Shown here: positions 4,473 to 43,956 of the stretch, piece by piece | How the letters are laid out: the number at the start of each line of letters is the position of its first letter | Position numbering within the stretch: the first letter of the stretch is position 1 | DNA from: a virus | Taxonomy: Duplodnaviria > Heunggongvirae > Uroviricota > Caudoviricetes | IMG/VR virus record: IMGVR_UViG_3300032293_000813 | Coordinates: 87,000-150,999 of that record | DNA: 64,000 bases | Strand: one strand, 5' to 3' | Notes under the pieces: model-generated | Seen by the model: only the letters and a program-made list of their open reading frames with translations | What the model was told of the DNA's origin: nothing | Databases searched by the model: none | Made by a program: the position numbers and the translations under genes

Positions 4473-4880
4473 TTAACCAACTTTAATCGTAACCTTTTTT
4501 GGTTTTGCTTCTTCCTTCTTAGGAATAGTTAGGTAAAGAACACCATTTAGGATTTTAGCTGAAGTTTTTGCTCCATCAAATTTATCTCCTACCGCAATTC
4601 TATCATTAATAGTAGAGATAAGTTCTTTTTCAACCTTTGATAATTCTCTTTCTACTGATTTTACAAAAATTGCATCTTCTTCCAATTCGATAGTAATATC
4701 ATCTTTACTATGACCTAAAACTGATAGAGCAATTATTGCTTCCTCTTCTGTAACATCAATTGATAATCTTGAGTTTTGATATGTTACAGCTGGCACAGGT
4801 AAAGTGAAAAATGAATCATTTAGAAACGAATCAAGCACCTTATCAAGTGTTGTGTAATTTTTTTTGTTTGTGTTGTACAT
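4473..4880 (-). CDS. small heat-shock protein, Hsp20/alpha-crystallin family
   Basis: Alpha-crystallin domain signature (SIDVTEEE..., GVLYLTIPK) and ~135 aa size. Confidence 0.8.
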   Translation of the reverse strand: MYNTNKKNYTTLDKVLDSFLNDSFFTLPVPAVTYQNSRLSIDVTEEEAIIALSVLGHSKDDITIELEEDAIFVKSVERELSKVEKELISTINDRIAVGDKFDGAKTSAKILNGVLYLTIPKKEEAKPKKVTIKVG

Positions 4881-9812: not shown

Positions 9813-10496
9813 TTAAACCAAATATTGTATATTATGTTTCATAGTTTCATACTGAACATTGAAAAGAAGTGCAAACCTATTAACATCCTCCTTCACCTCG
9901 CTGACCATATGAAACGGGTCTGATTCGCCACTAAAATTAAGGAATAATATATCAGCAAAGGTTGGAACTATTTCTTCATCTTCAACTACAAATAATCCCC
10001 CATATTCTTTCTTGTATTCTTTGTTCAAATATATCAATATATTAGCAGGTTTCCTGTGAGGGAATTCTTCATACCCATCTGGTTTACCATCTCTATGACC
10101 ATTTAATCCACCTCCTTTAATATAGAGTGTTAATAATGGCTTTCCTATAAATAATGTGTGTCTTTTTTGACATTCGTTTTTGAATAATTCAAATGATTTA
10201 TTCAATATCCAATTATGTAGTTTTGGGTAATCACTCCATTCTAATTCTCCACCATTTAAACACAGTTGACCTATTATGGAATCAGGCATAGATTCATATC
10301 TCTCCGCAATCATATTCATAAAAGATTTAGCTTTATCATGTGATTCATGCACCTCCATCATCCCGAACTCACCTGGACCTCTATGAATTGTTTTAGTGTA
10401 TTTTTGCAAATCAGTTGATATCTGATATATCTTATCTAATTCTTCTTTTAAATGATTTATATCATATAAGTTCTCTTTGTAGTATGCACCTTCCAT
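9813..10496 (-). CDS. putative 2OG-Fe(II) oxygenase-like protein
   Basis: NGHRDG (HxD) ... FHMVSEV ... NRFAL arrangement; weak. Confidence 0.35.
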   Translation of the reverse strand: MEGAYYKENLYDINHLKEELDKIYQISTDLQKYTKTIHRGPGEFGMMEVHESHDKAKSFMNMIAERYESMPDSIIGQLCLNGGELEWSDYPKLHNWILNKSFELFKNECQKRHTLFIGKPLLTLYIKGGGLNGHRDGKPDGYEEFPHRKPANILIYLNKEYKKEYGGLFVVEDEEIVPTFADILFLNFSGESDPFHMVSEVKEDVNRFALLFNVQYETMKHNIQYLV

Positions 10497-12188: not shown

Positions 12189-12557
12189 TGGTGGAGGTGG
12201 AGGGAGTCGAACCCTCGTCCAAATACGGATTTAATAAACCTCATTCACAAGCTTAGTTAGTTTTTCTTAACTAACAAAATAGATAAAGATTTATACATTC
12301 GTTATCATTAATGTTCCAATTCGATTTCGGGTTCAATTGGTCTCCACCTGAGTTCACATTCTATTTTAAGTCCCACGATGTGTGCGGGAGGGATTAGGCT
12401 GCTATAGCGTAATCAGCACCAACGAATGCCATAGCATCTTCGAAGGTCATTGTAGATAATTCTACGTCGTTTATTGTTCGATAGGTATTTAAGGATTTCC
12501 ATCTAACCCTGCTTGCAACTTACCAACTCATCGTACCTGTCAAAACCAGGCACCCCC
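12189..12557 (-). ncRNA. ssrA: tmRNA (SsrA), one-piece, ~369 nt
   Basis: The 5' end GGGGGUGCCUGGUUUUGACAGG resembles E. coli GGGGCUGAUUCUGGAUUCGACGGG. The 3' end GGACGAGGGUUCGACUCCCUCCACCUCCACCA resembles E. coli GGACGCGGGUUCAACUCCCGCCAGCUCCACCA; the acceptor stem pairs GGGGGUG with CACCUCC. An internal tag frame ends ...GGU GCU GAU UAC GCU AUA GCA GCC UAA (GADYAIAA*). Confidence 0.8.
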
Positions 12558-12559
12558 AA

Positions 12560-14140
12560 TTATTTTTTGTAGAATATAAATATCGGTTCATATTTGTAGA
12601 ACTGACCACCTATCTTCATACTATTTTTAACACCACTTAAATCAACTCCCGTCATAGGAGACATCGTCATTCGGATTTTACCTTGATACTCCATACCTAA
12701 TTCGGTTAGTATATCAATTGAATCCTGTTCCAATGGATAGAAACTTTTTCCTATCTTAATATCAGCAATGTTCCATAATATATATCTATCATTTCTTAAA
12801 TACTCAAATGCAGTTACCAAAGTAGGTCGTAAAAATCCATCTCTCCAACTTTCGTAGTTACCAAATTTCTTAAATGATTGTGTTTCATCATCAGAATATC
12901 TTTCTCTATCAAAGTAAGGAGGAGAAGTAAATATAAAATCTAATTGACCTTTATACTTTTGGAATCCTTCTTCTTCACTAATAATCTCTGAACCTGTTCT
13001 ATAAATCTCATAGGTATTTTTATGCCCCCAAAATGGATTACATGCTCCAGGTATTTTAGAGTTAAAGAATTCTGCTAAGTATTCATATCTACTCTTACCA
13101 ATTTCAGGAATATAATTTTCTGTATTTGGGTCATTACCAATGTAGTGAATATTTCTATCATCAACCGATAATGCACCTAATATTCTACCTCCCCAACCAG
13201 AAGATGGGTCATAGATATTAATTTGTTTTTGTTCTTTAATGTGGTTTGTATATTTCTGATACAAATACTTTGCAGTTAGTGGTGGAAAGTTTACAGCTGC
13301 TTGTGTGCCCATTCCAATTCTAAATGCCGCAGTTGCCTCAGGAAAAATAGTTTGACCTAATGGATACCACTTTAATTGAATAGGTTGTTTTTCCAATTCA
13401 GTTAACGCATCAATATCTTCTCCCCAATTAGCAGTTTTAAGTGATGAAATATGTTTATACTGAATCACACCTGCTTTATATAATTCCTTCACCTCTTCCG
13501 CAGTAATTGGCAGAGATGGAATCCTACTATCAGTTTGTGCTAAACAGAAATCATGCCCATCCCATACATCACCATTCATCCATTTCTCAATCCATTCTTT
13601 ACCACTTGCCAAATGCGTATTGTGATGTTCTTTATTATCCTTCTCCAATGTTTTAGAGAAACGATACATAGCATCTTGTCGTGTCAATCTCCTCATTTGT
13701 TTTGCAAACTCAGGAAGAAATTCATCGTTACAAAATATATCGTAGATAGATGGTTTTGGTTTATCATAAGAAGAACCACCGATTCCCGTCTTATACATCG
13801 CGGGAAAGAATTGATTTACAGGTGTTGCGAATTTATTAAAATTAAAAATTACATCATTACCCTCATCATCTTTCTCCTCAAACTTTTCCACCTTATAGGT
13901 TTGTAGTTTAGAAAATTGGTCTATAATCTCAGCCTCCGAAGAACCGATACGTGGAGGTGCTCCTGTTTTGTTCCACTCATCTACTACGGTCTTACGGAAC
14001 ATAGCAACCCACTCTTCAAATTCGGTAAGTGTCATCTTAAGAACATCCTCATATTTTAAGTTAATATGGGGTTCGTTAAAATAATCACACTTTTCGTAAA
14101 AATATTTCTTATCTGACATTATATGTTTATTAGAAATCAA
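12560..14140 (-). CDS. DNA amino-methyltransferase (N6-adenine or N4-cytosine) with large N-terminal domain
   Basis: Motif I YDPSSGWGGR followed by motif IV IFTSPPYF. Confidence 0.7.
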   Translation of the reverse strand: MISNKHIMSDKKYFYEKCDYFNEPHINLKYEDVLKMTLTEFEEWVAMFRKTVVDEWNKTGAPPRIGSSEAEIIDQFSKLQTYKVEKFEEKDDEGNDVIFNFNKFATPVNQFFPAMYKTGIGGSSYDKPKPSIYDIFCNDEFLPEFAKQMRRLTRQDAMYRFSKTLEKDNKEHHNTHLASGKEWIEKWMNGDVWDGHDFCLAQTDSRIPSLPITAEEVKELYKAGVIQYKHISSLKTANWGEDIDALTELEKQPIQLKWYPLGQTIFPEATAAFRIGMGTQAAVNFPPLTAKYLYQKYTNHIKEQKQINIYDPSSGWGGRILGALSVDDRNIHYIGNDPNTENYIPEIGKSRYEYLAEFFNSKIPGACNPFWGHKNTYEIYRTGSEIISEEEGFQKYKGQLDFIFTSPPYFDRERYSDDETQSFKKFGNYESWRDGFLRPTLVTAFEYLRNDRYILWNIADIKIGKSFYPLEQDSIDILTELGMEYQGKIRMTMSPMTGVDLSGVKNSMKIGGQFYKYEPIFIFYKK

Positions 14141-14173: not shown

Positions 14174-15202
14174 TTATTCTCTAATTGTATCCAACGTTAC
14201 ACAATGAGGCCCACCACTAAAGGTTCTAGCATGTCTCATACGGACGGGTATAGAATCTACCCCATACTTCTTTAATTCTTTCATAAGAGGTATCTGTCGT
14301 TCCTCTACTATCATCGTATTCTCATCATAAGAAAGAGTGTTCATTCCCAACCAGGGTGATGCTTCTGCCCAATGTTCTAAACAATTTGTTTCCACCATCT
14401 CAGGAGAGTATATAACCTCCCACGATTGAAAGATTTTAGGTAGGTTGGTATGATTTACCCTTTTAGGATTAACTAAGACCAGTCCCTCTCTAATGAGTAC
14501 AAAAGTGGTATCTATATGGATGAATGCATATACATCTTCTATAGGATGTACATTATACTTTTCTTTCATATTTTCATCCAACCATTTTTGAAGATATTCG
14601 GCTCCTGCTCTGTTGCCGGTATTAGATATTAGGAATAGAATATCGTTATTACACTTAAGAATATTAGCCGCATCAAATACAGGCTCATCATTTCTTAATG
14701 TAGGGCCTGGTAACAATCCCCTATCATATATCGAATCTAATAATTTTGGTTTAGGAAAATCTACCCAATGTGATTCATCGAATAGATGTTTAAATGCTCT
14801 CGTTTCATTTTGTCGTTGGCGGAGAGCCATAGGAGTAGCAATAACTTTATCTTCTATAACTAACATAGAATCTCTAGGGCAGTATCCGTAGTAACCATCT
14901 ACTTCCCAATTTTCAGTTGAATAGGTTTCACTCCAATCGATTAAAGCAGGCCTGTGAACTTTAACACCTAACCCTTCTAATGTTTTACTTAAATTGTTTA
15001 GGTCTTCCGTAGTTTCTTCAATCATCCAATTAGGATAAGTTCCATATGGTATCTTACGAAATTGGTCATCTGTGTAATTAGCGTAATCAATCGTATGTAA
15101 TGATTTATCTCTTATAGTAGGAATCTGAGCAAATTCAGGTCTTCCTACGATTATCTCTTTTAGTTTCCCCCACTCATTTCTTATATAAGGTTTAATCTTC
15201 AT
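14174..15202 (-). CDS. L-arginine:glycine amidinotransferase (AGAT/CyrA/SxtG family)
   Basis: Collinear with human AGAT: [20 protein letters not shown] vs [29 protein letters not shown]...CPRDSMLVI...[36 protein letters not shown]; C-terminal catalytic SGGPHCVT vs GGGFHCWT. Confidence 0.85.
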   Translation of the reverse strand: [342 protein letters not shown]

Positions 15203-15212
15203 AAAAATTTAT

Positions 15213-15782
15213 TTAATCTATAAACGCTGCATTTGCATCTCTATTAGAAAGAATAGGAGTTTGAGTAGGCCAATCTATTTTTAATTTCGGGTCATCCCAT
15301 CTAGCCGTCTTTTGTTTAGTGTCATCATTATATTCACCTTCATACGCCATTTTGTATGTGAAAAGAGAATCATCGGTTAGCACATAGTGACCATTAGCAA
15401 ACATCGGAGGACAGAGTATCTGTATTTGAGTTTGAGGAGACATAATAAATGTTTCAGATTTTAAATATGTTTCCGATTCAGGTCTCATATCAACTAACAC
15501 CGTATATAGTGAACCCAATGGACAACTTAATAGCTTCCACGTCTTATTATCGTAATGCAATCCTCTCAATACTCCTTTATAGGATTGTGAAAATCTATCA
15601 TGTTTAAACTCTAAATCAGTTGGTAATACCTTTGGGAAATAGTCCGTATGAAATGTAGTCCATATTGAGCCCCTAAATTCATGATAAACTGAATTGGATA
15701 TAATTTTTACATCCGTTAAAACTTTACCACTATTGACATGAAATTCATCCCAATTTTGATTTTTGTAAAATAACTTTTCCAT
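15213..15782 (-). CDS. RmlC-like cupin (dTDP-4-dehydrorhamnose 3,5-epimerase family)
   Basis: GVLRGLHYD, KLLSCPLGSLYTVLVDMRPESETY, FANGHYVL, RWDDPKLKIDWP and LSNRDANA align with RmlC motifs. Confidence 0.8.
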   Translation of the reverse strand: MEKLFYKNQNWDEFHVNSGKVLTDVKIISNSVYHEFRGSIWTTFHTDYFPKVLPTDLEFKHDRFSQSYKGVLRGLHYDNKTWKLLSCPLGSLYTVLVDMRPESETYLKSETFIMSPQTQIQILCPPMFANGHYVLTDDSLFTYKMAYEGEYNDDTKQKTARWDDPKLKIDWPTQTPILSNRDANAAFID

Positions 15783-16423
15783 TATATTAAATTTTGTTTG
15801 TTTTTATTAATTCTAATTTTCCTATATGGCGATAACACATATTCTTCATAGTGAACATCACTCATCTCCATACCTAAATATTTAAATAAATCTCTAATGT
15901 TAGATTTATCATGTTCTACAAATATATCTTCATAGTAGAATATAGGAAATTTTTTATCATATGATATCTTATGAAGAATTTCACTTGATTCCATATACCT
16001 ACTAAACATTGTTTTAATGTAAGATGGTTCTATTTTATCAACATCGTAAATCTTAGGAGTATGCCACCCAATACCTCTTTCCCTCATAGATGTTTCATTG
16101 ATAGCAAAACTTTCCGATTGAGCAAGTTTATCCTTCCTATCCAATATAATTATTTTATCAAAAAAAGTGTAACACCAATCGAGATATTCATATACATTCT
16201 TAAATGAATCAATCGGATAATCATCTATACCAATTAAAAATAAATTTTTAATTAATATGTTTTCTACATTTAAAATAGAATCTATTTTCTTTAGATATTG
16301 ATTGAATTCGTAATTGAATGGCTCTATAAGAGTTGTATGATTAGATAATTTTATATGAGAATCTATCAATTTAACCAATGAAGTAGAACCACTTCTAGGT
16401 GTAGCTAATATTAATATTCTCAT
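15782..16423 (-). CDS. Stf0-like sulfotransferase
   Basis: ILILATPRSGSTSLVKLIDSH matches the Stf0 5'-PSB PAPS-binding loop (ILASQRSGSTLLVESL). Confidence 0.65.
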   Translation of the reverse strand: MRILILATPRSGSTSLVKLIDSHIKLSNHTTLIEPFNYEFNQYLKKIDSILNVENILIKNLFLIGIDDYPIDSFKNVYEYLDWCYTFFDKIIILDRKDKLAQSESFAINETSMRERGIGWHTPKIYDVDKIEPSYIKTMFSRYMESSEILHKISYDKKFPIFYYEDIFVEHDKSNIRDLFKYLGMEMSDVHYEEYVLSPYRKIRINKNKQNLI

Positions 16424-16489
16424 AAAATATATTCGAATGTTATAACCATAGTAACAAATATAATAAAAATTTGTTACATTACCAAATGA

Positions 16490-17035
16490 TTATAATAAAT
16501 TAATCCTTTTGATATGTGGTTCGCTAATAAATATTGTTAATGATTTCCTACTTCCCTTTATAATAGGAGTAACCTCGTGTGGCACTTTTACTCCAAATGT
16601 ATAAGTGTACCCGATTGTTCTGGGTATCAATTCTTTCACATCATTTCTATAAACATACATATCCCCACCTTCGTAATCAAACTCATTGGAAAGTTGTACA
16701 CAAACCGTCATATATCTTCTAGGTGTCGGAGTCGGCGGTTCATCTATGTGTTTCATAAAAAAATCACCAATTTCATATTTCCTAAATACGGCGTGTGGAT
16801 GATTTATTAACTCAAACCCCAAATGTAGAGAGCTAATCCATTGTGATAGTTTTATAAAAACCCAATCAATATCTTCATCCCAATTTAATTCACTACTTTG
16901 CATTTTACATCCGATATCATTCCATTTACCATCCATAAAAACTGGATATAATGTATCAGATGTTTCCCCCATATGAACCAGCAAAGACCGAATTTCATCC
17001 GAAGAAAACAAATTAGTATGTGCTATATGATTCAC
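16490..17035 (-). CDS. 2OG-Fe(II) oxygenase
   Basis: HIDE (HxD) ... PHEVTP (His) ... RKSLTIF (RxS). Confidence 0.55.
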   Translation of the reverse strand: MNHIAHTNLFSSDEIRSLLVHMGETSDTLYPVFMDGKWNDIGCKMQSSELNWDEDIDWVFIKLSQWISSLHLGFELINHPHAVFRKYEIGDFFMKHIDEPPTPTPRRYMTVCVQLSNEFDYEGGDMYVYRNDVKELIPRTIGYTYTFGVKVPHEVTPIIKGSRKSLTIFISEPHIKRINLL

Positions 17036-17201
17036 TATCTAATATAAAGTATCTATGATAAATGTTTAGCTTTAATTCTATCTACTACCTCCTTCATTGC
17101 CAAAGATGTTTTAGTTTTCAATTCGGGTGTAATAGGGGCAATTACAACTTTAATTACAGTCTGCGGTCTTTCAATTTTATTTATAATCATTTTTATATTA
17201 T

Positions 17202-18686
17202 TTAAGCTTTTGCAAATCTTTCTATACACGCGGGGCACCACGATGAATAACACCAGTCTCCACAATAACTCCATGGACACCAACATGGGTTATGCATTAC
17301 CCCAAAATCACCTGTACCCAAATCAACTAAAAATAAATCCGATGGCTCGAAATCTAAAGCATATACCATCATTTTAGCATGCTCCATTTCTAATGATGCA
17401 ATTTCTAATGTAGTTAATTCTGATGTTGTGGAATCTGTTATTACTATTTTATCCCCCACATACATTTTATTTAATATCTCAAATCTAGTTGCAGAAGAAC
17501 CTGATTCTTCAATATAATATGTACATGCAGGTGAATCTATCCAATTTCTACCATCTGTTAATGTAACTCTGATAAACATAGTATCAACTGATGCAGAAGT
17601 TACAAAATTCAAACTAGAACTAGTCTGAGTTAAAGTTTGGTTAGATTGTTGTAAATTACTTTCCCAACCTAACACATCCAATTTACCTTCTTCAAAATTA
17701 CCACCATGATTACCATTAAAATCAACGAAATCAATAGAACGGATATAGCTACCTAATTGTATAGTGTCAGCCCTTTGCAAAGAACCGGTATAATCTATAA
17801 TCATTGAATCCTCGTCCGTATGATATTCGTGCTTTACATCATCTATTCTTTTTGTAATATATTTGTATCTACTTTTCTGGTCAAGTTTAGTTGAACCACT
17901 TATAAATTCAGTTGCGAAATTAGAAAGGGGTACAATGGTGGATTGTTTATATCCACCCATATTAATAACATCTAGAGTAGGACCGTATAATATATCAATA
18001 TTTCTTATTATAGAATACCTATCCTCTACCAAATTATCCTCAGAATATACAAATTCTTGCACTAAATAATTAGTGGGTAAATTACCTTTTATATTATCCA
18101 ACTCTGACTGATTACTCAATGTATGAAGTTCTGGATATAAAACTTTATCGTATTCAGGATATCTAGCTTTTATCAAAAGATTTGGGTTCGAAGTAGAGGT
18201 ATAATCTACTGAATCCAATGTATCTAAATTTACTTCAGCAGTTTCAAAAAATGTTTTTGGGATATACTCAGAAGTATGCATTAAATTAAAAAACTCAAAT
18301 TTATCAGCGCAATATGTTTCATCTACCAATGCAGTTGTATCATATGATTGTCTTAATATAAATTTAGTAGGAGAATCTTCTATATAAGGTACAGTGATTG
18401 AACCCAATGGAACAATATATTCGGCGAATGTAATATTACTTCCCGAACATCTTTCTTCTAAAATTTGTTTAAATCTATATGGTTCATATAAAGGTGTAAA
18501 CGCATCTGTTTCTGTCCAAATATAGTGAAATTCCGTAACTCCACTTGAACTCAGCATATTAAATAAACTATCATAATCTAGTATATCTGCCCCCTGATTA
18601 TAAATCGTTGTATTGGTATTAATTTCTAAAAACTTGACATCTCCATTATATTCTAATAAATCACTGCCAATTATTACTCCTTTCAT
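17202..18686 (-). CDS. hypothetical 494-aa protein with Cys/Trp-rich C-terminal tail
   Basis: C-terminus HNPCWCPWSYCGDWCYSSWCPACIERFAKA; no confident family. Confidence 0.5.
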   Translation of the reverse strand: MKGVIIGSDLLEYNGDVKFLEINTNTTIYNQGADILDYDSLFNMLSSSGVTEFHYIWTETDAFTPLYEPYRFKQILEERCSGSNITFAEYIVPLGSITVPYIEDSPTKFILRQSYDTTALVDETYCADKFEFFNLMHTSEYIPKTFFETAEVNLDTLDSVDYTSTSNPNLLIKARYPEYDKVLYPELHTLSNQSELDNIKGNLPTNYLVQEFVYSEDNLVEDRYSIIRNIDILYGPTLDVINMGGYKQSTIVPLSNFATEFISGSTKLDQKSRYKYITKRIDDVKHEYHTDEDSMIIDYTGSLQRADTIQLGSYIRSIDFVDFNGNHGGNFEEGKLDVLGWESNLQQSNQTLTQTSSSLNFVTSASVDTMFIRVTLTDGRNWIDSPACTYYIEESGSSATRFEILNKMYVGDKIVITDSTTSELTTLEIASLEMEHAKMMVYALDFEPSDLFLVDLGTGDFGVMHNPCWCPWSYCGDWCYSSWCPACIERFAKA

Positions 18687-18722
18687 ATAGTATTCTGTTA
18701 ATTTAGTATAAATATCCGTTTT

Positions 18723-19013
18723 TTATATTATAGTATCCTTAGATTTCTTAATTAATCGTTCCATATATTTAGAATCAATATCCTCCCACTTCTCCATTGG
18801 ACATGGGTTAAACATAGGAGAGAATACCTTTTTACCTAATGGACACCCACACAACTTACACACCGTAGACCATTTAATTCCCCTAAGTGTCTCCTTTCTG
18901 TGTTCACATGATTTGCATATTTCCAACCTATCCTTTGCCATAGATTTCTGAGATTCCGATGGATTTTTAGAAATTACCCAAGCTTCAAATATTTCTTTAT
19001 AGTTTGGTATCAT
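18723..19013 (-). CDS. Cys-rich putative zinc-binding protein
   Basis: CKSCEH...CKLCGC...NPCP. Confidence 0.4.
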   Translation of the reverse strand: MIPNYKEIFEAWVISKNPSESQKSMAKDRLEICKSCEHRKETLRGIKWSTVCKLCGCPLGKKVFSPMFNPCPMEKWEDIDSKYMERLIKKSKDTII

Positions 19014-19747
19014 ATTATCGATTTATTACTTTTTGGGGATTCATAATATTCGTATATAGAATCATACCTTAGCATAAATTCACTATCCAATTGTATAGCC
19101 GTTTTCACAAATGAACTAGAATTTACATGCTTTAATTTGAATTCAACATTAGTAATATTAGATACCCATTCTTCTAATTTATACATCTCATTGATATTAA
19201 ACCAAATAATATTTTTATGGTGGATATGCCAATGTGAAAGCGGGGTGATTAAAATATCAATTATATTATTAATATATCGATATGATGCATCATATCTTAA
19301 CTCCGGTATTATGTTAAATAAATATTCGTTTATGATGTGGTGTCTATTTTTATTTGTCATAATATCATCTGTATTAAAAAAGAATAATTCATCTAATGTA
19401 AAATTAGAAAATTTATATGATAATTCCCTTGCACCAATTCTTTCTAAATCAAATATAATATGCTTGTATAGTGAATAAAATCTTTCATATTTATTACGTT
19501 TTACCGCTATAATAGGTAAATCGTAACCAAATTTATTTTGTAATTCGGATAGAGGTGAATGCCCATGCTCTATAAAATTCATTATATCCGATTCATCTAT
19601 GGAATTAAAATCTATCTTAGAATTATCAAAATCAGCTTTAGTATCTAAATTTTTTACAGTTAGACCATTTATTATACATGAATAATGAAATGAAGTAGAA
19701 CCACAACGTGGTAATGAAATATATAGAAATTTATTATCTACTAACAT
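19010..19747 (-). CDS. putative sulfotransferase (Sulfotransfer_2-like)
   Basis: N-terminal FLYISLPRCGSTSF resembles the carbohydrate-sulfotransferase PAPS loop (hIhIPKtGGTs). Confidence 0.45.
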   Translation of the reverse strand: MLVDNKFLYISLPRCGSTSFHYSCIINGLTVKNLDTKADFDNSKIDFNSIDESDIMNFIEHGHSPLSELQNKFGYDLPIIAVKRNKYERFYSLYKHIIFDLERIGARELSYKFSNFTLDELFFFNTDDIMTNKNRHHIINEYLFNIIPELRYDASYRYINNIIDILITPLSHWHIHHKNIIWFNINEMYKLEEWVSNITNVEFKLKHVNSSSFVKTAIQLDSEFMLRYDSIYEYYESPKSNKSII

Positions 19748-20394
19748 TATACCAAACTTTTTTCTTTTTTAATTAACTCAAATCCAACATTGCCCGCCAA
19801 CACAACTCTATCTATTGTAGAATTGGGTGCATTATTTGGAGAGTGCGGCATCCACCCCTCCATCACTACTAAATCATCTTCCTCTGGTCTTATCCAATAT
19901 TCTGTATTATCCTTTCCTTTGAAGTATAGTACACCATCTTCACCATCCATTACATCGGGCATCTGTATATAATAAACATATGTGTAATCCGGAACAAATG
20001 ATTTTGTTTTTTTATTAATTTCTGTATGAGTATGGTATTTTTGCTTTTTATCGTAAAAGTTTTCTTGCACCGGCTCCTTTGAGCGAACAACATTCACCCA
20101 CGCATCCGTATTAACTTTATTAAATTCTTTATTAAATTGTTGTAGGTATATATCCTTACATATATCAATACCATACTGACAAACCTCATCTAATTTATTT
20201 TCTACGGTAAAAGTTCCGTTGAAATCTATATTGTTATTCCATTCTTTTTTATAACCAAACCCATCTGTATGAACTATTTCTTTTAGGGATTCTATTAAAG
20301 TATTAGCTTCGATTAAAATCATATCTCTATGTGATGATAGATTTAATTTACCTTTCCATATAAATGTATTATCATCAAAATAAATCTTTTCCAT
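19747..20394 (-). CDS. hypothetical protein, possibly cupin/2OG-oxygenase-like
   Basis: YHTHTE ... MPHSP ... RVVLAG spacing; weak. Confidence 0.3.
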   Translation of the reverse strand: MEKIYFDDNTFIWKGKLNLSSHRDMILIEANTLIESLKEIVHTDGFGYKKEWNNNIDFNGTFTVENKLDEVCQYGIDICKDIYLQQFNKEFNKVNTDAWVNVVRSKEPVQENFYDKKQKYHTHTEINKKTKSFVPDYTYVYYIQMPDVMDGEDGVLYFKGKDNTEYWIRPEEDDLVVMEGWMPHSPNNAPNSTIDRVVLAGNVGFELIKKEKSLV

Positions 20395-20395
20395 A

Positions 20396-21643
20396 CTATA
20401 TTAATTCTTTTATTGAAACTTTTTTATTTTTCTTAAAAATCATCTGATAGTTGTAAACAAAAAAAGTTAATTCAGTTTCCTCTACTTCTTTTAAATCAAA
20501 TATTTTTAATAATTCAGCATTCGTTTTTGGTATAATATTATTATTATCGTCTAATATTAATTTTAATTTTTCTGGTATTGGCATTTCATATGATGCTTTC
20601 CAAAACGGAGTATCAAATCTTTCAGCTAAATAGTGATATCTAACGAACATCATGTTTTGCTCATTGATACTAGAGCAGGTATCATTAAATCTATCTCTAA
20701 GTGATACATCAAACTTAGCACTTATTAATCTCTTTAGTTGCATTATAGTTGACATCAATGAGGTAGCTTCCAACGGTTCTATGAATCCATATGATAGCCC
20801 AATTGCAACACTATTACCTATCCAACTTCTTTTATGTGTACCTGGCTTAAAATCAAATACTTTTTGTATAGTAATTTCTTTACCTATGTAATCTTCCACT
20901 TCTTTCTTAGCTTCTTCAACCGTAATAAATTCTGAATTAAATGTATATCCACATCCCCATCTATGTTGCAATGGTATCTGCCACATCCAACCTGAATCCA
21001 TTGAAATCATATTAGTGTGGGTTACATCTCCTATTGCATATTGATTTTCTTGTGGTAAAAAATATGCCATAGCTCTATTCAATAAAAGATATTTAGAATA
21101 ATCAATCCATTCATCATTGTGAACCTTACCTATAATAACTCTAGCAAAACCACTGCAATCAAATACAAAATCTATACCCTTAATATCAATTCCTTCCTTA
21201 AGTGAAATGGAATGGATATCCTCACCTGTTTTATCTACCACATCGACCTCACCTTCAATCCACTTAACACCTCTTGATAATGATACTTCTTTTAAGTATT
21301 CCGCTACCATTCTTGCATCAAAATGATATGCGTAATTTTGTTTAAACGCATTTGGTTTCGGTCCTGTAAAAAGATGCGATGAACTTTTCCCATCACCTGT
21401 CCAATTTGATAGTGTTAACCCTAATTTACTTGTGCAACCTGTTCTTTTAAAAAAATCATTTTGGTTTATTTCCAATAAAGATAAAAACGCACCAAAGTTA
21501 GGAGTAGCTCCTTCTCCTGCTCCTAATATTCCTATCTTAGAACTTTCTATTAAAGTAACAGATGCATCTTTCCAAAATTTATTAACAGATAGGGCGGTTA
21601 GCCACCCCGCAGTTCCGCCTCCAATAACAATTACATTTTTCAT
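20396..21643 (-). CDS. flavin-dependent halogenase (tryptophan-halogenase family)
   Basis: N-terminal VIVIGGGTAGW FAD motif plus WMWQIP (WxWxIP) motif. Confidence 0.7.
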   Translation of the reverse strand: MKNVIVIGGGTAGWLTALSVNKFWKDASVTLIESSKIGILGAGEGATPNFGAFLSLLEINQNDFFKRTGCTSKLGLTLSNWTGDGKSSSHLFTGPKPNAFKQNYAYHFDARMVAEYLKEVSLSRGVKWIEGEVDVVDKTGEDIHSISLKEGIDIKGIDFVFDCSGFARVIIGKVHNDEWIDYSKYLLLNRAMAYFLPQENQYAIGDVTHTNMISMDSGWMWQIPLQHRWGCGYTFNSEFITVEEAKKEVEDYIGKEITIQKVFDFKPGTHKRSWIGNSVAIGLSYGFIEPLEATSLMSTIMQLKRLISAKFDVSLRDRFNDTCSSINEQNMMFVRYHYLAERFDTPFWKASYEMPIPEKLKLILDDNNNIIPKTNAELLKIFDLKEVEETELTFFVYNYQMIFKKNKKVSIKELI

Positions 21644-22209
21644 ATTAAACTAACTTTTTTAATTGATGATGGCCAAACATTCAACGAATATCTTAGACCA
21701 GATTCTATAGTATCAACCGAATGTGTTATATTAGAATCAAACATAAACACACTTCCCATTTCCTTTGGTACTGAATACTCTACTTTATTTATATTGTATT
21801 TAACCAACCCTCCTTCATAATTATCATTTAACTGAATAATAAGTGTTGTGGTTGCTCCGTTTATTATCTCATGCTTATCTTCATGCCAATCTAAAAAATC
21901 TCCATCGGAATAACGATTAAATGAATACTTTTGAATAGAAGTATATGTTACACCATTGAATGGGTTTAACTCATTTGAAATTAATAAAATTTTATCCGAT
22001 ATATTCTTTATTCGAGAATCGGATAATACATCTCCTATAAAATAACCACCCATTCTTTTATTACCATTGTATTCAATATCCTCTTCCATTACCACACCAT
22101 TTAGAATTTTGGATGATTTCATTTGTTGCAATCCATTATCCTCGCCATATGAAATAATAAAATCACACTCTTCTTTACTTAAAAAGTTTTGAATAAATTT
22201 GTAAAACAT
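21640..22209 (-). CDS. 2OG-Fe(II) oxygenase
   Basis: WHEDKH (HxD) ... ITHSV ... RYSL (RxS). Confidence 0.55.
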   Translation of the reverse strand: MFYKFIQNFLSKEECDFIISYGEDNGLQQMKSSKILNGVVMEEDIEYNGNKRMGGYFIGDVLSDSRIKNISDKILLISNELNPFNGVTYTSIQKYSFNRYSDGDFLDWHEDKHEIINGATTTLIIQLNDNYEGGLVKYNINKVEYSVPKEMGSVFMFDSNITHSVDTIESGLRYSLNVWPSSIKKVSLI

Positions 22210-22421
22210 TATTTATTTTTTAATCCGTATTTAATCCACTTATACCAAACTCTTTCATGTAGATAATACTGAATGGGTTTATAAATCAATTCTGCTACTC
22301 CAAATGCCGCTCCAACTTTAATTGAACCACTTACCCACCACATTATACCAAACCCAATTAAGGTAGATATAATACGGTATGAAATAGTTTTAGCTATATG
22401 TCGTTTACGTTGTACTATCAT
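22209..22421 (-). CDS. small membrane protein (2 TM)
   Basis: Hydrophobic 70-aa ORF. Confidence 0.4.
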   Translation of the reverse strand: MIVQRKRHIAKTISYRIISTLIGFGIMWWVSGSIKVGAAFGVAELIYKPIQYYLHERVWYKWIKYGLKNK

Positions 22422-23026
22422 ATTAAACCTTTTATGTTTTTATTTTTTAAAAATTCAGTACCATTAAAAGTAGTATATTTTAATTCGTAGTTATATCTAA
22501 ATGATGTGTTTTTACTATATGGCAAGGATTCAATTTCACCTTCAGTTAACTCATGTCTATATGAGTTAAATCGTGTATCTAATGTGCGTAAAGCAAAAAA
22601 TGAAACTATAGTACCATTCTTACAATTAGGTTTTATGCAATCTAAAAATTTAGGAATATTTTTATCATGATGAGTATCATGTAAAACACCATCAAATTGT
22701 TTGTTTAGCATAGGTATGATATTAATCCAATCACCTAATATCACTTCAGTATTTGGTTTACCTTTAGCCCATACAAGCGCATGCTTATATATTTCAGGGT
22801 GAACCTCTATAATCGTATGAGATTTTACGGCTGGATTTGATTGAATAGCATCTGCCGATATATGCATACCAAATCCGATTTCTAAAATATCACCACCATT
22901 CATAGTGGCAATTTCAGCTAATTTATCCATCAAAGATTTTTCACCTCTGTGCATAACATAGTCACCTTTTAATCCATCTATTCTGATTTCATCTGATGAT
23001 AATATTAATTTTTCTGTTCCGTTCAT
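22418..23026 (-). CDS. guanidinoacetate N-methyltransferase-like (GAMT/RMT2 family) SAM methyltransferase
   Basis: VMHRGE...GGDILEIGFGMHISADAIQ...HTIIEVHPEIYKHAL...FDGVLHDTHH aligns with rat GAMT VMERWE...GGRVLEVGFGMAIAASRVQ...HWIIECNDGVFQRLQ...FDGILYDTYP. Confidence 0.75.
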   Translation of the reverse strand: MNGTEKLILSSDEIRIDGLKGDYVMHRGEKSLMDKLAEIATMNGGDILEIGFGMHISADAIQSNPAVKSHTIIEVHPEIYKHALVWAKGKPNTEVILGDWINIIPMLNKQFDGVLHDTHHDKNIPKFLDCIKPNCKNGTIVSFFALRTLDTRFNSYRHELTEGEIESLPYSKNTSFRYNYELKYTTFNGTEFLKNKNIKGLI

Positions 23027-23403
23027 TACCCTTTGGTTTCATCATAGGTAATAGTTCCATCTGATGTCATATGACCTGTTCTGATAGCAGTTCCACTAAT
23101 TGTTGCAATATCCGTTGGTGGCTCGTGATAGATTACATCGTAACCAACACCTCTACCATAATTTACCGATTCAATATCAGGAATAATAGATAACAAAATT
23201 TTATCAATCTTATCTAAAAAGAATTTTTCATTTGATAACTCCTTTAGAATTTGTTGTGCAGTTTTAGGATTGTTTTCATCCTGCTGAACATCTCTGATTG
23301 CTACCCAAACATTTTTACCTTTATTTAATTGTTGGTTTATTAACCATTCATGCCCTTTGTGCCAATTTTGCCATCTTCCGATGTACATTGCATATTTTTT
23401 CAT
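23026..23403 (-). CDS. NadM-like nucleotidyltransferase (archaeal-type NMN adenylyltransferase family)
   Basis: YIGRWQNWHKGHEWL vs NadM IIGRFQPFHKGHLEV, and ISGTAIR vs YSGTEIR. Confidence 0.55.
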   Translation of the reverse strand: MKKYAMYIGRWQNWHKGHEWLINQQLNKGKNVWVAIRDVQQDENNPKTAQQILKELSNEKFFLDKIDKILLSIIPDIESVNYGRGVGYDVIYHEPPTDIATISGTAIRTGHMTSDGTITYDETKG

Positions 23404-23843
23404 AAATCTAATTTTTGTAATAATTTTCTATATGATTGAAATTCGTTATCAATTGTTGTATCACAATCTATAAAATTTTCAATCGGTGGTTGGTATCCTT
23501 CCACAAAGAAATTCTCTCTACCTCTTTCCTCCGTTGTATGAACATATACTTCTTTGATGTTATCGTCTCCTATCAATTGTTTAAAAGAATCTCGTTGGTC
23601 TTTATATGGAGAAACTAATGATACTAATGCAAGACCTCCTTTATTATGTATGAAGTGTGCAAGATGTTGTGCCAATTCTACATTCTTTCTACGACCTATT
23701 TCTGAATAATCCTTATTGTTAAATATTTCTCTTATATCATCACCATCTACAATAGTAGGGTGGAGAGAATGAAGATGAGTATATAACATCTTTACTAAAG
23801 TTGTCTTACCTGCACCTGGCTGACCTGTTAACCAATAAATCAT
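23400..23843 (-). CDS. cysC: adenylylsulfate (APS) kinase, PAPS-forming
   Basis: WLTGQPGAGKTTL, DGDDIREIFN and VSLVSPYKDQRD match CysC WFTGLSGSGKST, LDGDNVRHGL and ISPHRAER. Confidence 0.8.
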   Translation of the reverse strand: MIYWLTGQPGAGKTTLVKMLYTHLHSLHPTIVDGDDIREIFNNKDYSEIGRRKNVELAQHLAHFIHNKGGLALVSLVSPYKDQRDSFKQLIGDDNIKEVYVHTTEERGRENFFVEGYQPPIENFIDCDTTIDNEFQSYRKLLQKLDL

Positions 23844-24961
23844 TTGTATATATATTTTACTATTTTATTACTTTGATTACGTTGTAAAATGCTGTATTCC
23901 ATAACATTGTGCATATACTCTTTCAGATACGTTCGTTGTACATCATTATACCATTCGATATCATTATTTAGTATAGTTTCCAAATGATTCATAAATTCTT
24001 CTCCTTCTCCAAAAAAATATATAGGAGAGTTAAATGTAAATCCCATCTTTTCTAATGCATACTTAACTTCTTTTTTTCCATAATATACAAAAGGATTTCC
24101 GGATTTTAGAGCCTTGTGTATCTTCTCAGATAGGTATAATCCATTCATTTTTAATAGATGATGAGTCTCCGTTATTATTTCAAAAAAGGATTCAAAATAT
24201 ATTCTATAATTCATAGGAACTGTACCAATATGATTAATACCTAATATTTTCTTTTTCTGTTGTTCTACTTCACTAATCTTAGATAATCCAGGATATGTAT
24301 CATAGTACATAGGATATTTAATGCCATGCGCTTCACATTCTTTTAAAAACCATTCCTCTGATTCTATGCCGAAGTGTGCTTCATTAAAATCTATTAAATT
24401 AAAAGATATATTACCTTCCGATTGTTTATTATTTTTATGAATTAATTTAAGTATATCAAATCTAATAGGAGAGAAGTGATTGTTAAGAAACATAAATTTT
24501 TTCTTTATTGTCCCCAAATCTGCACGCTTAATTATATCTAATGCATGTACGAATTCCGTTTCACAATTTTCCGTTACCCATTGATTGGGGTTATAAAAAA
24601 TAAAATCATCTTTACCTAAATAATTTATATCATTAGTTAACCAAATTAAGCGTTTGTTATGAAGAAGGGTTTTGTAAAAATTTATAATATTATTTGTAAT
24701 CTTACTTTCTTCTATAGCAAAGTTTATCACAAATCTTATTTCAGAATTAAAATCATATACAGATTCTATATTATCTCTTAGCCTATTAACCCATATTTGA
24801 TTAGTATAATCAAACGAATCCATAGACTTACTGATTTCTATTAATTTTACGTTTTTGTCAAATGCAGTATTGGTGCTAAATCCTCTTGGTAAATAAAATA
24901 CCAATCCACCATCTCTGATTTCAGATTCTCCGTTATTAAATATGTGTAAAGCTCGTAACAT
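23840..24961 (-). CDS. hypothetical protein
   Basis: 373-aa ORF between the APS kinase and an SGNH paralog. Confidence 0.45.
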   Translation of the reverse strand: MLRALHIFNNGESEIRDGGLVFYLPRGFSTNTAFDKNVKLIEISKSMDSFDYTNQIWVNRLRDNIESVYDFNSEIRFVINFAIEESKITNNIINFYKTLLHNKRLIWLTNDINYLGKDDFIFYNPNQWVTENCETEFVHALDIIKRADLGTIKKKFMFLNNHFSPIRFDILKLIHKNNKQSEGNISFNLIDFNEAHFGIESEEWFLKECEAHGIKYPMYYDTYPGLSKISEVEQQKKKILGINHIGTVPMNYRIYFESFFEIITETHHLLKMNGLYLSEKIHKALKSGNPFVYYGKKEVKYALEKMGFTFNSPIYFFGEGEEFMNHLETILNNDIEWYNDVQRTYLKEYMHNVMEYSILQRNQSNKIVKYIYK

Positions 24962-25839
24962 TATATTATTCCTTTTTCTATCATATTTAAAATAGATTCT
25001 CCAAAATATTCATGTCCTTCTAAACTATAGTGTAAGTTTTCAATACCTACATCTTTTAATGTATAAGTGTTCTCTTCTATACGTTTGGTATCATTCATAG
25101 GCAATACATTATTAAGTATCTTATCATATCCAAACTCCATACTATTTGCCATTCGATGTGCGATAGAGTAAGAATCAAACCTATTCATTTGCATTAATTG
25201 ATTATATGCCATTAGATTATTTAAGTTTTCATATTGAACTAAATAATCAGTCATTACAAAATTGGTGAAGTATGAAAAGAATGTATGAAATTTTTCCGAA
25301 TCAACTGGTATATCATTGTGCTTAAGCCAATCCTCTACTATATTAACCTGATTCATACCTGGATTAAGAGAATGTACTAAAGCCTTATAAGTCATATCCG
25401 CTCTATATGAACCACTCCATTGTGTTATACATAGAGGATTCTTATAATTTTTTAAAAGTGATTTATCGTACTTCTTAAAAATTCTTTTATTAGGTTCTAA
25501 AAATACCCAATTATCTTCTCCAACTTTATAATCGTATATGAAATAAGGATTAACTTTGGGTTCAATGCCTGATAGATAATACCATCTACGCAGAATAGAT
25601 TTATTAGATGAACCACTCTTAGATATATTTAAAAGTGGAACACCTAATAATTCTGCTATTCTTAATCCCCAACTAAAAGACCTGTCTAAGAATACCTCAT
25701 TATTAGAATGGTTTTTTAATTCCAACCAATAATCGTAATACTTACATTCTTCTTTGTATGTATCAAATTGCCTATATAACCCATTACCTTCGGAAAACGA
25801 ATCTCCGTTAATAATTACTAAATCATAATTCATGTTCAA
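24961..25839 (-). CDS. SGNH/GDSL hydrolase paralog 2
   Basis: N-terminal VIINGDSFSEGNGL (GDS block I). Confidence 0.55.
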   Translation of the reverse strand: MNMNYDLVIINGDSFSEGNGLYRQFDTYKEECKYYDYWLELKNHSNNEVFLDRSFSWGLRIAELLGVPLLNISKSGSSNKSILRRWYYLSGIEPKVNPYFIYDYKVGEDNWVFLEPNKRIFKKYDKSLLKNYKNPLCITQWSGSYRADMTYKALVHSLNPGMNQVNIVEDWLKHNDIPVDSEKFHTFFSYFTNFVMTDYLVQYENLNNLMAYNQLMQMNRFDSYSIAHRMANSMEFGYDKILNNVLPMNDTKRIEENTYTLKDVGIENLHYSLEGHEYFGESILNMIEKGII

Positions 25840-43528: not shown

Positions 43529-43956
43529 TATATAATCTTATCTAATGTTTCTAAAAATTGCGGATTACCTATAGTATATAACTTACCCTCAACCTCATAT
43601 ATTATGTTTTTCCCATTACCTAACGCCCACCTCAATACCCAATTCAATACAACCGAATCCATTTTTTTACTATGTTCCATTACATCATAATAGGAAAGGG
43701 TATCATCGGTTGGATGCTTCTTATGTGAAATGACAACATTTGATAGAGTTGGTTTCATCCAATCCGGTATATCTTCATTCATCAACCATTCACAATTGTA
43801 GGAACGACAAGGATGTTGGGGTCTATTATCATATATAGTACACCCACATTTAGTATCATAGTGAGTACATTTAATACCATTACCCATAGGTACTCCAAAG
43901 ATTTCTGCTTTGAATCTACCATCACAACATTTGCCACATTCACCACACTCTCTCAT
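43528..43956 (-). CDS. Cys-rich protein (putative metal-binding)
   Basis: MRECGECGKCCDG...CTHYDTKCGC...CRSYNC. Confidence 0.4.
   Translation of the reverse strand: MRECGECGKCCDGRFKAEIFGVPMGNGIKCTHYDTKCGCTIYDNRPQHPCRSYNCEWLMNEDIPDWMKPTLSNVVISHKKHPTDDTLSYYDVMEHSKKMDSVVLNWVLRWALGNGKNIIYEVEGKLYTIGNPQFLETLDKII

Follow-up and report, generated by a model that had tools for sequence, protein, structure and literature searches.

The 64,000-nucleotide stretch of DNA analysed here (the window) covers positions 87,000 to 150,999 of IMG/VR virus record IMGVR_UViG_3300032293_000813 (Caudoviricetes). It carries an island of 18 closely packed or overlapping minus-strand open reading frames (ORFs) at positions 14174-25839. 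An original prediction, made from the sequence of region 14174-24961, described these genes as a guanidino-metabolite and sulfation pathway. Our examination of the island and its relatives leads us to lean, tentatively, toward a different model in which the genes form a conserved module for tailoring a protein or glycoprotein in a lineage of freshwater jumbo phages, supplemented by an accessory branch of sugar genes, rather than a single guanidino-metabolite pathway.

Approximately 120 related loci, most of which were retrieved by using either a 494-amino-acid protein of the island (called o494) or its GAMT-like methyltransferase as bait, were searched for the presence or absence of the proteins of the window. 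A conserved core is evident in these loci. It includes an adenosine 5'-phosphosulfate (APS) kinase homolog, a 125-amino-acid nucleotidyltransferase, a DUF2061 protein, 2-oxoglutarate (2OG)-Fe(II) oxygenases, a halogenase, a protein with weak similarity to 2OG oxygenases, a 245-amino-acid sulfotransferase-like protein, a 96-amino-acid protein (o96), o494 itself and an ORF of about 45 amino acids, with a carbamoyltransferase gene nearby. These genes recur jointly in phages whose core proteins are only 25-65% identical, and their order is kept down to 25-30% identity of o494. A matching block is present on more than 100 contigs, both metagenomic and from the viral collection of IMG/VR, and thus the arrangement of the island is not due to chance. 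The earlier placement of the enzyme genes within about 11 kb on one strand is also borne out.

Other genes are swapped in around this core, and relatives carry as extras GAMT-like methyltransferases, radical S-adenosylmethionine (SAM) enzymes, a second sulfotransferase, more 2OG oxygenases and families without an assigned function. The amidinotransferase of the window, an RmlC-like gene and a gene for a 526-amino-acid protein with an SPPY methylase-like motif constitute an accessory trio. The GAMT-like gene is also accessory, and is separate from this trio. In distant relatives, GT25, GT2 and GT7C genes hold the slot of a GT-B glycosyltransferase gene in the window, and very large fibre-like proteins then follow. 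The original prediction had named neither o494, o96, the 125-amino-acid nucleotidyltransferase, the DUF2061 protein and the GT-B gene, nor the shared protein tail described next.

Proteins from at least 11 unrelated families end in the same type of C-terminal tail, which is composed of a lysine-rich stretch followed by [S/T/N/K], then L/I, and then I/L at the terminus. The island proteins with this feature are a probable sulfotransferase of 213 amino acids (..NKNKQNLI), the 2OG oxygenases encoded at 16490-17035 (..HIKRINLL) and 21640-22209 (..SIKKVSLI), o96 (..KKSKDTII), the 245-amino-acid sulfotransferase-like protein (..PKSNKSII), the weak 2OG-like protein (..IKKEKSLV), the halogenase (..KVSIKELI), the GAMT-like protein (..NKNIKGLI) and a 292-amino-acid protein called o292 (..NMIEKGII). 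When ORFs of at least 60 amino acids are scored, the tail is present in 9 of 16 inside the island versus 5 of 80 elsewhere in the window (p = 1.2e-5), and composition alone would produce it by chance in 1.6% of ORFs. Tailed ORFs elsewhere in the window are located at 36632-37219, 45414-46139 (DUF6734-like), 58608-59261 and 63104-63469.

The distribution of the tail across the related loci is bimodal by family: 74-100% of the members of a family have it, or almost none do (about 0%). The tail is carried by 136 of 145 2OG oxygenases, all 67 of the 245-amino-acid sulfotransferase-like proteins, all 58 o96 homologs, 48 of 57 homologs of the 213-amino-acid sulfotransferase, 52 of 53 weak 2OG-like proteins, 49 of 50 halogenases and 10 of 12 GAMT-like proteins. 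It is also present in four families without an assigned function (74-93% of members) and in both radical SAM proteins that were checked. On the other side of the distribution are o494 (0 of 64), DUF2061 (0 of 36), the nucleotidyltransferase (0 of 33), the APS kinase homolog (1 of 27) and the carbamoyltransferase (0 of 12), and the tail is likewise missing from the amidinotransferase, the RmlC-like protein, the SPPY methylase, most glycosyltransferases, HSP20 and the deformylase.

At the serine of the tail, AGY as well as TCN codons are used, and the leucine and isoleucine codons also vary. This synonymous variation indicates that selection acts on the peptide. We also considered an origin at the DNA level, such as the ribosome-binding site of the next gene or a recombination cassette, and this is excluded by the synonymous codons and by tails that persist in front of intergenic gaps. 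Homologs from HTVC008M and S-SCSM2R, which belong to the Kyanoviridae, lack the tail. Among GAMT homologs its occurrence follows that of the o494 core, and it is missing from bacterial and distant viral members. We read the tail as a putative docking or targeting peptide that might link these enzymes functionally.

The central gene of the island (17202-18686) encodes o494, which is a candidate for the substrate or hub of the module. The N-terminal domain has invariant residues D9, E21, N23, R113, D123 and K176, and the probable Hint-like domain behind it ends at the invariant H465-N466, after which the last 28 residues form a six-cysteine peptide that is rich in tryptophan and tyrosine (PCWCPWSYCGDWCYSSWCPACIERFAKA). 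There are 658 homologs with 60-87% identity on contigs of up to 333 kb, and an exhaustive profile search for the family yielded 317 cluster representatives. The His-Asn pair is nearly invariant across 40 diverse members, and positions 344-453 of a profile made from diverse members, which end at this pair, match Hint structures of Hedgehog and intein proteins (E ~1e-5). Longer homologs carry one or two canonical Hint/intein domains straight after the His-Asn (e.g. HN|CFVAGTKITL), with the canonical Hint block A coming next to the pair, and four of the longer homologs have a Peptidase_S74 intramolecular-chaperone domain. We conclude that o494 probably carries a Hint-like domain. An AlphaFold2 model built with 31 close homologs has a predicted local distance difference test score (pLDDT) of 45, which is too poor for use.

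Within the lineage, the peptide after His-Asn conforms to the pattern x-C-W-C-P-W-x-[YF]-C-G-x-[WY]-C-x3-[WY]-C-x2-C, followed by a variable end that is rich in glycine and proline and usually closes in K-[LIV]. The peptide is still cysteine-rich in distant members, where its sequence has changed. A conserved ORF of 45 amino acids (17053-17190) is located directly downstream of the o494 gene, and its position is kept among relatives, where the ORF has 45 amino acids in close phages and 36-47 in distant ones (core identity ~28-60%). Family members P0310-P0458 carry up to three Hint units, consisting of an internal Hint-like domain and then one or two canonical Hint or intein-like domains in tandem behind the first His-Asn. 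Others among P0310-P0458 have hypervariable cysteine-rich peptides in their place. The layout is similar to that of polymorphic toxins with a pre-toxin Hint domain.

The C-terminal peptide of o494 covaries with the GAMT-like gene. Distinct post-His-Asn peptides were split by the presence of this gene, wherein absence was called only with flanks of at least 8 kb. When all o494 homologs are considered, arginine is found in the peptide in 17 of 22 cases with the gene versus 0 of 17 without it (Fisher p = 5e-7). The corresponding values for homologs with greater than 50% identity to o494 are 7 of 11 and 0 of 17 (p = 2.8e-4). Arginine ranks first among the 20 residues in its association with the gene, with histidine second at 1e-3. 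The association is specific to the one residue whose group is methylated by enzymes of the GAMT/RMT2 type. The covarying arginine resides in the glycine-rich stretch past the last cysteine (GGGR.., GGGGRE.., ..IERFAKA). The contrast is also apparent between sister phages, which have ..CGNCARNPIK with the GAMT-like gene versus ..CPNCIVNPIK with an empty slot. Four clades bear a GAMT-like gene without the arginine, and their genes are divergent (43-49% identity).

The protein in question (22418-23026, 202 amino acids) is related to guanidino-N-methyltransferases of the GAMT/RMT2 type. It has a precomputed match to the family profile PF27704, and it matches GAMT in the PDB with 56 bits (E 3e-14), although only residues 20-119 align and the C-terminal half is not alignable. 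SAM motif I is kept, and residues E29 and D117 align with the guanidino-binding residues E45 and D134 of rat GAMT. The SAM core and the two acids that hold the guanidino group are shared with GAMT, yeast Rmt2 and the viral GAMT described previously (PMC11360552), and the family is enriched in viruses. Our protein differs from GAMT in aligning only over its N-terminal half, in lacking an amidinotransferase partner and in carrying the lineage-specific tail.

The genomic distribution of this gene is not that expected of a creatine pathway, as had been raised for the pairing of AGAT and GAMT homologs. In a set of 43 GAMT-anchored viral loci, each of at least 12 kb, only one has an amidinotransferase gene within 10 kb. 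The same loci contain an o494 homolog in 22 cases, DUF2061 in 19, the nucleotidyltransferase in 18 and the kinase in 17. In sister phages that retain the amidinotransferase, the nucleotidyltransferase gene abuts the DUF2061 gene with a gap of 3 nucleotides, which leaves the GAMT slot cleanly empty. The family is almost exclusively viral, with 7 weak matches in 185,579 species genomes, and none of these 7 bacterial loci has an adjacent amidinotransferase gene. This independent distribution removes the creatine interpretation. A previous catalog lists viral GAMT as an auxiliary metabolic gene and proposes a role in creatine synthesis (Tian et al. 2024, PMC11360552). Instead, the covariation with an arginine in a neighboring protein argues for a peptide substrate, as is the case for Rmt2, and we infer that the GAMT-like enzyme may methylate arginine in the C-terminal peptide of o494. 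In one relative (L008 10001-11874; JGI contig Ga0620987_00428, 237 kb), the GAMT-like protein is represented by three paralogs in tandem (205, 204 and 204 amino acids), each of them tailed. Their genes adjoin those for a divergent homolog of o494 (499 amino acids, ends ..CCWGLCSW) and for a B12-binding radical SAM enzyme, and no amidinotransferase gene is nearby.

Several core genes encode enzymes that might act on such a target. The flavin-dependent tryptophan-type halogenase (20396-21643) is recognized by the Pfam Trp_halogenase model with 310 bits, in agreement with the original assignment, and its motifs can be read directly from the sequence: GGGTAG (GxGxxG), GWMWQIP (WxWxIP) and the catalytic lysine in CTSKLGL. 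The protein is 36% identical to PrnA of Pelagibacter phage HTVC008M. A different viral halogenase, VirX1, has reportedly been shown to be an iodinase in vitro. The gene for a 2OG-Fe(II) oxygenase (21640-22209; 2OG-FeII_Oxy_3, 43 bits) overlaps the start of the halogenase gene, and HTVC008M has an equivalent overlapping pair. A second, prolyl-hydroxylase-like oxygenase is encoded at 16490-17035 (32 bits), where translation probably begins at the ATG at 16972 and the gene call in relative locus L002 is 160 amino acids. The iron triad of HxD/E and a distal histidine can be read from the sequence, and both of these proteins match PF13640. The weak 2OG-like core protein (19747-20394, 215 amino acids) is a divergent oxygenase-like protein that reaches 23 bits with 2OG-FeII_Oxy_3, which is under the cut-off, and a further 2OG oxygenase (28 bits) at 9813-10496 lies outside region 14174-24961. 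The two clear oxygenases of the original prediction stand.

Two small core proteins have fewer clues to their functions. The DUF2061 gene (22209-22421; Pfam DUF2061, 58 bits) encodes a small predicted membrane protein, and a search of the literature on DUF2061 returned nothing informative. The o96 protein (18723-19013), which is present in nearly all related loci, is cysteine-rich and resembles a zinc ribbon, with weak matches to Zn_ribbon and DUF6171.

The gene for the APS kinase homolog (23400-23843, 147 amino acids) yields a Pfam APS_kinase match of 68 bits, and 22 of its 22 PDB matches are APS kinases. The P-loop, DGD and SP-Y-x-x-R motifs are all present and the family profile agrees. However, the lid is shortened, and so the substrate could differ. 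Its neighbor (23026-23403) encodes a minimal HxGH nucleotidyltransferase of 125 amino acids similar to NMNAT/NadM, whose profile matches NMN adenylyltransferases (E 5e-5) and in whose family the HxGH and ISxTxIR motifs are invariant. The two genes are adjacent except in a few relatives, where one 2OG gene intervenes. The 125-amino-acid protein might make an adenylylated substrate for the kinase homolog. No profile match backs an identity as ATP sulfurylase, for which adjacency would be the only argument.

The 213-amino-acid protein (15782-16423) carries a PRSGST motif and matches Sulfotransfer_3 with 22 bits and Sulfotransfer_1 with 19 bits, both under the Pfam cut-offs. The best PDB matches to its profile are the CurM sulfotransferase and NodH (E ~0.1). 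The 245-amino-acid core protein (19010-19747) has no match in Pfam or the PDB, even in a profile search, but it has an invariant P13-R14-x-x-S17-T18 (PRCGST) together with R84...S92, which resemble the 5'-phosphosulfate-binding (PSB) and 3'-phosphate-binding (PB) motifs of enzymes that use 3'-phosphoadenosine 5'-phosphosulfate (PAPS). Both proteins are probably sulfotransferases, as they had been named earlier, although neither attains a profile match above threshold.

The accessory branch includes the amidinotransferase (14174-15202), which had been assigned to the AGAT family. The enzyme is an L-arginine amidinotransferase (Pfam ADI, 30.9 bits), but its best relative in the PDB is the inosamine-phosphate amidinotransferase StrB1 (1bwd; 283 bits, E 3e-83, residues 7-341), compared to 175 bits for SxtG and 154 bits for AGAT. 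Its length equals that of StrB1 and it lacks the extra residues of AGAT, as the alignment spans 334 query residues against 334 residues of StrB1 but 346 of AGAT. The Cys-His-Asp triad is intact, with C334 and its His and Asp partners aligned to C332, H227 and D179 of StrB1. Thus, membership in the StrB1/AGAT/SxtG/CyrA family is supported by full-length homology and by the triad, with arginine as the presumed amidino donor, whereas the AGAT subtype is not. The setting also differs from those of known family members, in that this gene is found in a phage island beside an RmlC-like epimerase gene and not in an aminocyclitol or polyketide synthase (PKS) cluster.

Five further lineages of viruses have homologs of the amidinotransferase (35-52% identity) whose neighbors belong to various classes of sugar genes, namely NAD-dependent sugar epimerase/dehydratases, UDP-glucose and GDP-mannose dehydrogenases, a DegT-type sugar aminotransferase, glycosyltransferases of the GT2 and GT8 families, radical SAM enzymes and an amidotransferase of the asparagine-synthase type. 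The homolog in Synechococcus phage S-SCSM2R, which is 39% identical to the window protein, is located amid four glycosyltransferases and a DegT/AHBA-type aminotransferase. Given this context, the best-supported inference is that the acceptor would be an amino sugar or a cyclitol-like compound and not glycine.

The adjoining gene (15213-15782) encodes an RmlC-like dTDP-sugar 3,5-epimerase of the cupin fold (Pfam dTDP_sugar_isom, 132 bits), as had been anticipated, with the catalytic His, Lys, Tyr and Asp positions present in the sequence. The two genes are adjacent in related loci that cover both. The third member of the trio (12560-14140, minus strand) encodes the 526-amino-acid protein, whose C-terminal SPPY amino-methyltransferase motif is DNA-methylase-like and which has weak matches to N6_N4_Mtase and to a PHROG for DNA methyltransferases. 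It is present in all related loci with the amidinotransferase but one, and is 90-98% identical where the amidinotransferase is 85-97% identical and core genes are about 45-60% identical. A second DNA-methyltransferase-like gene is located at 37532-38899 (minus strand), and the first has an N-terminal domain of its own of about 300 amino acids.

The island also contains a gene for a 373-amino-acid glycosyltransferase, o373 (23840-24961), that has the two Rossmann domains of the GT-B fold, though a profile search of the PDB returned no match for it. In relatives, GT25, GT2, GT4 and GT9 genes adjoin the core, as does a gene for a UDP-sugar dehydrogenase. At the edge of the window (1-1106, minus strand) is the truncated N-terminal part of a NodU/CmcH-type carbamoyltransferase (Pfam Carbam_trans_N, 226 bits), which confirms its earlier identification. 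This gene is part of the conserved neighborhood in relatives and abuts the core directly in distant ones. The o292 protein (24961-25839) has an N-terminal GDSxSxG motif, and on this motif alone it is a possible SGNH-type esterase or acyltransferase, with no match in Pfam, NCBIfam or the PDB.

These parts can be assembled into a provisional scheme. The sulfotransferases would draw on PAPS, or on a similar 3'-phospho-adenylyl donor, produced by the nucleotidyltransferase and the APS kinase homolog. The adjacency of the latter two genes suggests this role, as do the PSB and PB motifs in the transferases. The tail would dock every tailoring enzyme to one common partner. The common target would be a protein, for which the leading candidate is the six-cysteine C-terminal peptide of o494, and the Hint-like domain may free this peptide through cyclisation of the asparagine at His-Asn. 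The peptide would then be hydroxylated, halogenated and sulfated, and would be methylated on arginine too where a GAMT-like gene is present. A guanidino or deoxy sugar would be supplied and attached by the StrB1-like amidinotransferase, the RmlC-like epimerase and the GT-B glycosyltransferase, and carbamoylation by the carbamoyltransferase may follow the example of NodU. This would yield a glycopeptide or glycoprotein with decorations, with the virion, the host envelope or a released peptide as possible destinations. Prolyl 4-hydroxylase-type 2OG oxygenases, halogenases, radical SAM enzymes and RMT2/GAMT-like methyltransferases are typical classes for the tailoring of peptides and proteins.

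Several points weigh against this scheme. Because most of the related loci were retrieved with o494 or GAMT as bait, part of the co-occurrence was built in by construction, and the pair of 2OG oxygenase and halogenase genes is also found in phages that lack o494. The direct Hint signal on o494 of the window is weak (6.9 bits), which makes the assignment probable but not proven, and a search of the PDB with a narrow profile of the o494 family found no Hint structure. Moreover, the N-terminal nucleophile and the TxxH motif of Hint domains are not evident, and so cleavage is a conjecture. The six-cysteine peptide is conserved within the lineage and not hypervariable, which fits a structural zinc or disulfide knob equally well as a released peptide. 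The statistic for arginine and GAMT ignores kinship, has 4-6 exceptions and judges absence within 8-10 kb only. Finally, a covariation between the halogenase and the number of tryptophans in the peptide is confounded by clade, and we do not rely on it.

A more specific version of the protein-tailoring model is a peptide factory, in which a six-cysteine peptide would be released by the Hint-like domain and modified by a swappable battery of unrelated enzymes, ranging from 2OG hydroxylases, a halogenase and sulfotransferases that would use a PAPS-like donor made by the phage to radical SAM enzymes and a GAMT-like arginine methyltransferase, each recruited by the common C-terminal docking tail. 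We regard this version as possible but somewhat doubtful. It has parallels with clusters for ribosomally synthesized and post-translationally modified peptides (RiPPs) and with pre-toxin Hint polymorphic toxins, in that a gene-encoded, cysteine-rich peptide is situated at the C-terminus of a larger protein. As in RiPP clusters, hydroxylases, a halogenase, radical SAM enzymes, methyltransferases and sulfotransferases are grouped together, and a Hint-like domain is suitably placed for C-terminal release. Unlike RiPPs, there is no recognisable leader peptide or RiPP recognition element (RRE) domain, the candidate precursor has about 494 amino acids and a conserved enzyme-like N-terminal domain, the recognition-like tail is on the enzymes and not on the substrate, and the peptide is conserved within the lineage.

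The strongest competing explanation, which we nonetheless judge to be rather unlikely, is that the module tailors only glycans. The enzymes would build a polysaccharide or lipo-oligosaccharide of the host envelope or virion and equip it with hydroxyl, sulfate, carbamoyl, guanidino and N-methyl groups, similar to the modification of Nod factors by the sulfotransferase NodH, the sulfate-activating NodPQ, the carbamoyltransferase NodU and the N-methyltransferase NodS, and o494 would be unrelated. The GT-B gene of the island fits this proposal, as do the GT25, GT2, GT7C, GT4, GT9 and UDP-sugar dehydrogenase genes that adjoin the core in relatives, the RmlC-like epimerase, the NodU-type carbamoyltransferase, the location of amidinotransferase homologs inside amino-sugar clusters, and the appearance of NodH among the best weak PDB matches of the 213-amino-acid sulfotransferase. 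The likeness to Nod-factor decoration extends to PAPS supply, sulfotransfer, carbamoylation, N-methylation and the glycosyltransferase setting. However, the homology goes no deeper than broad protein families, a chitin-oligosaccharide synthase is missing, and the 2OG oxygenases, halogenase and Hint protein have no Nod counterpart. Prolyl-hydroxylase-type oxygenases, tryptophan-type halogenases, radical SAM enzymes and GAMT/RMT2-like methyltransferases would be unusual for glycans. A purely glycan-directed module also leaves unexplained the tail, which the glycosyltransferases, epimerase and carbamoyltransferase lack, and offers no reason for the covariation of arginine with the GAMT-like gene.

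It is unlikely, in our estimation, that the island lacks a shared product and is instead a hyperplastic region that gathers independent auxiliary metabolic genes, as such regions do in T4-like cyanophages and pelagiphages, each with its own target among the metabolites or proteins of the host. The patchy distribution of the amidinotransferase, GAMT, second sulfotransferase and extra 2OG genes would be natural in this case, and each enzyme class occurs singly in other phages. Likewise, a scan of the window for promoters and terminators was uninformative, with a site count not above that of shuffled sequence. The entire window is co-oriented, and thus co-orientation alone provides no evidence of an operon. 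The preservation of core gene order down to 25-30% identity of o494 is difficult to reconcile with such independence, and the family-specific common tail ties the enzymes together. In addition, the nucleotidyltransferase, kinase and sulfotransferases form a coherent set of donor and transferase functions, and the covariation of arginine and GAMT indicates a single substrate.

We consider it quite improbable that the island makes a small guanidino natural product or creatine from arginine through AGAT and GAMT activities, followed by sulfation, hydroxylation, halogenation and carbamoylation. The intact triad of the amidinotransferase and its likeness to SxtG, the guanidino-binding acids retained by the GAMT-like enzyme, and the joint presence of the APS kinase, sulfotransferases, 2OG oxygenases and carbamoyltransferase in the window are all in keeping with this possibility. 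However, the amidinotransferase and GAMT genes are uncoupled, as the single locus of 43 and the empty slot in sister phages reveal, and the amidinotransferase is nearer to StrB1 and lacks the additional AGAT residues. Furthermore, the tail of the GAMT-like protein is the one seen on the halogenase and hydroxylases, and the amidinotransferase has no such tail. As the original prediction itself observed, PKS and nonribosomal peptide synthetase (NRPS) genes are lacking; none is found in the scanned ORFs of the window or in the listed Pfam calls of related loci, and so the substrate is not obvious. The analogy to saxitoxin and cylindrospermopsin clusters, whose scaffold enzymes are SxtA and CyrB-F, extends only to classes of enzymes and is not supported.

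The least probable of these explanations is DNA hypermodification. The tail would then be a sliding-clamp-type docking peptide, and the enzymes would modify bases of the phage DNA after replication, with a hydroxymethyl base being activated by the kinase, nucleotidyltransferase and transferases and then elaborated. In favor of this idea, short shared C-terminal tails recruit the partners of clamps such as T4 gp45 and the beta clamp of bacteria, and the amidinotransferase gene has a DNA-methylase-like neighbor. Against it, the 2OG enzymes are of the prolyl-hydroxylase and not the TET/JBP or AlkB type, no base hydroxymethylase, DpdA or aGPT-Pplase-type gene is seen in the window, the aromatic residues that typify clamp-binding motifs are missing from the tail, and the covariation of arginine and GAMT is left unexplained.

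The window has a G+C content of about 31%, and its minus strand carries almost all genes. The identical island is found on freshwater metagenome contigs of up to 99 kb, and some of the o494 homologs are on IMG/VR viral contigs of 278-333 kb. A megablast search with the 10.8-kb region against GenBank phages gave zero matches, as did a tblastn search with o494 against 50,697 GenBank phage records. No structural or replication hallmark gene is apparent within the 64 kb, and PHROGs comparisons of the large ORFs outside the island gave no structural hallmark. Therefore, the viral nature of the DNA rests on its membership in IMG/VR, the contig sizes, and a gene content that includes PhoH, HSP20, peptide deformylase and a full-length transfer-messenger RNA (tmRNA). 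The window represents the accessory arm of an uncultured freshwater phage that infects a bacterium and is probably of jumbo size.

Additional features of the window, all on the minus strand, include genes for a UvdE UV endonuclease (62214-63107; 230 bits), an SPFH/Band_7 protein (31485-32507), an AAA ATPase (43956-45173), a divergent peptide deformylase (2350-2901) and HSP20 (4473-4880). The tmRNA (12189-12557) is full-length, with an ARAGORN tag peptide that ends ..ADYAIAA and a match of 105 bits to Rfam RF00023 over model positions 1-374. It is located directly downstream of the gene for the 526-amino-acid methylase-like protein, and a phage-borne tmRNA might aid host assignment. NCBIfam searches of ORFs without an assignment added only the NMNAT-like match.

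The closest cultured relatives of individual enzymes are from Kyanoviridae. The islands of HTVC008M, P-SSM2 and S-SCSM2R share with this one multiple 2OG-Fe(II) oxygenases, the overlapping pair of 2OG and tryptophan-halogenase genes, a carbamoyltransferase, PhoH, HSP20 and peptide deformylase, as well as the StrB1-like amidinotransferase amid glycosyltransferases in S-SCSM2R. However, there is no DNA similarity, the Kyanoviridae homologs lack the tail, and the Hint protein o494, o96 and the pair of kinase and nucleotidyltransferase are specific to the lineage of the window. An "inosamine amidinotransferase" of a cyanophage has been described previously and discussed as a gene for antibiotic synthesis (PMC12801897). 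In S-SCSM2R, ORF266, which is another amidinotransferase, and the 2OG oxygenase ORF269 are reported in the proteome of purified virions (PMC12801897), which hints that such enzymes can be virion-associated. The earlier suggestion that no described system matches the island is accurate only in part. Several components, namely the 2OG and halogenase pair, GAMT and the amidinotransferase, are known phage genes, but we found no description of a conserved module around the Hint protein, of the shared tail, or of the covariation between arginine and GAMT.

In abundant aquatic phages, the 2OG oxygenases, halogenases and "metabolic" genes without a known function number in the hundreds, and they are usually read as boosters of host metabolism. 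For one lineage, the island offers a testable alternative in which the enzymes would act jointly on a phage-encoded protein or glycoprotein. The tail provides a handle with which to search for the common partner, and the covariation of arginine and GAMT names a candidate residue of the substrate. If this model is correct, virus-encoded GAMT would be reassigned from creatine synthesis to the methylation of arginine in a peptide. If a heavily modified peptide is indeed released by the Hint-like domain, then phages would join the sources of ribosomal natural products, and tailoring enzymes would have a new mode of recruitment. There is a credible path by which the peptide factory, if confirmed, would make this island categorically new, as a phage-borne, RiPP-like system that carries its recognition tag on the enzymes instead of on the substrate.

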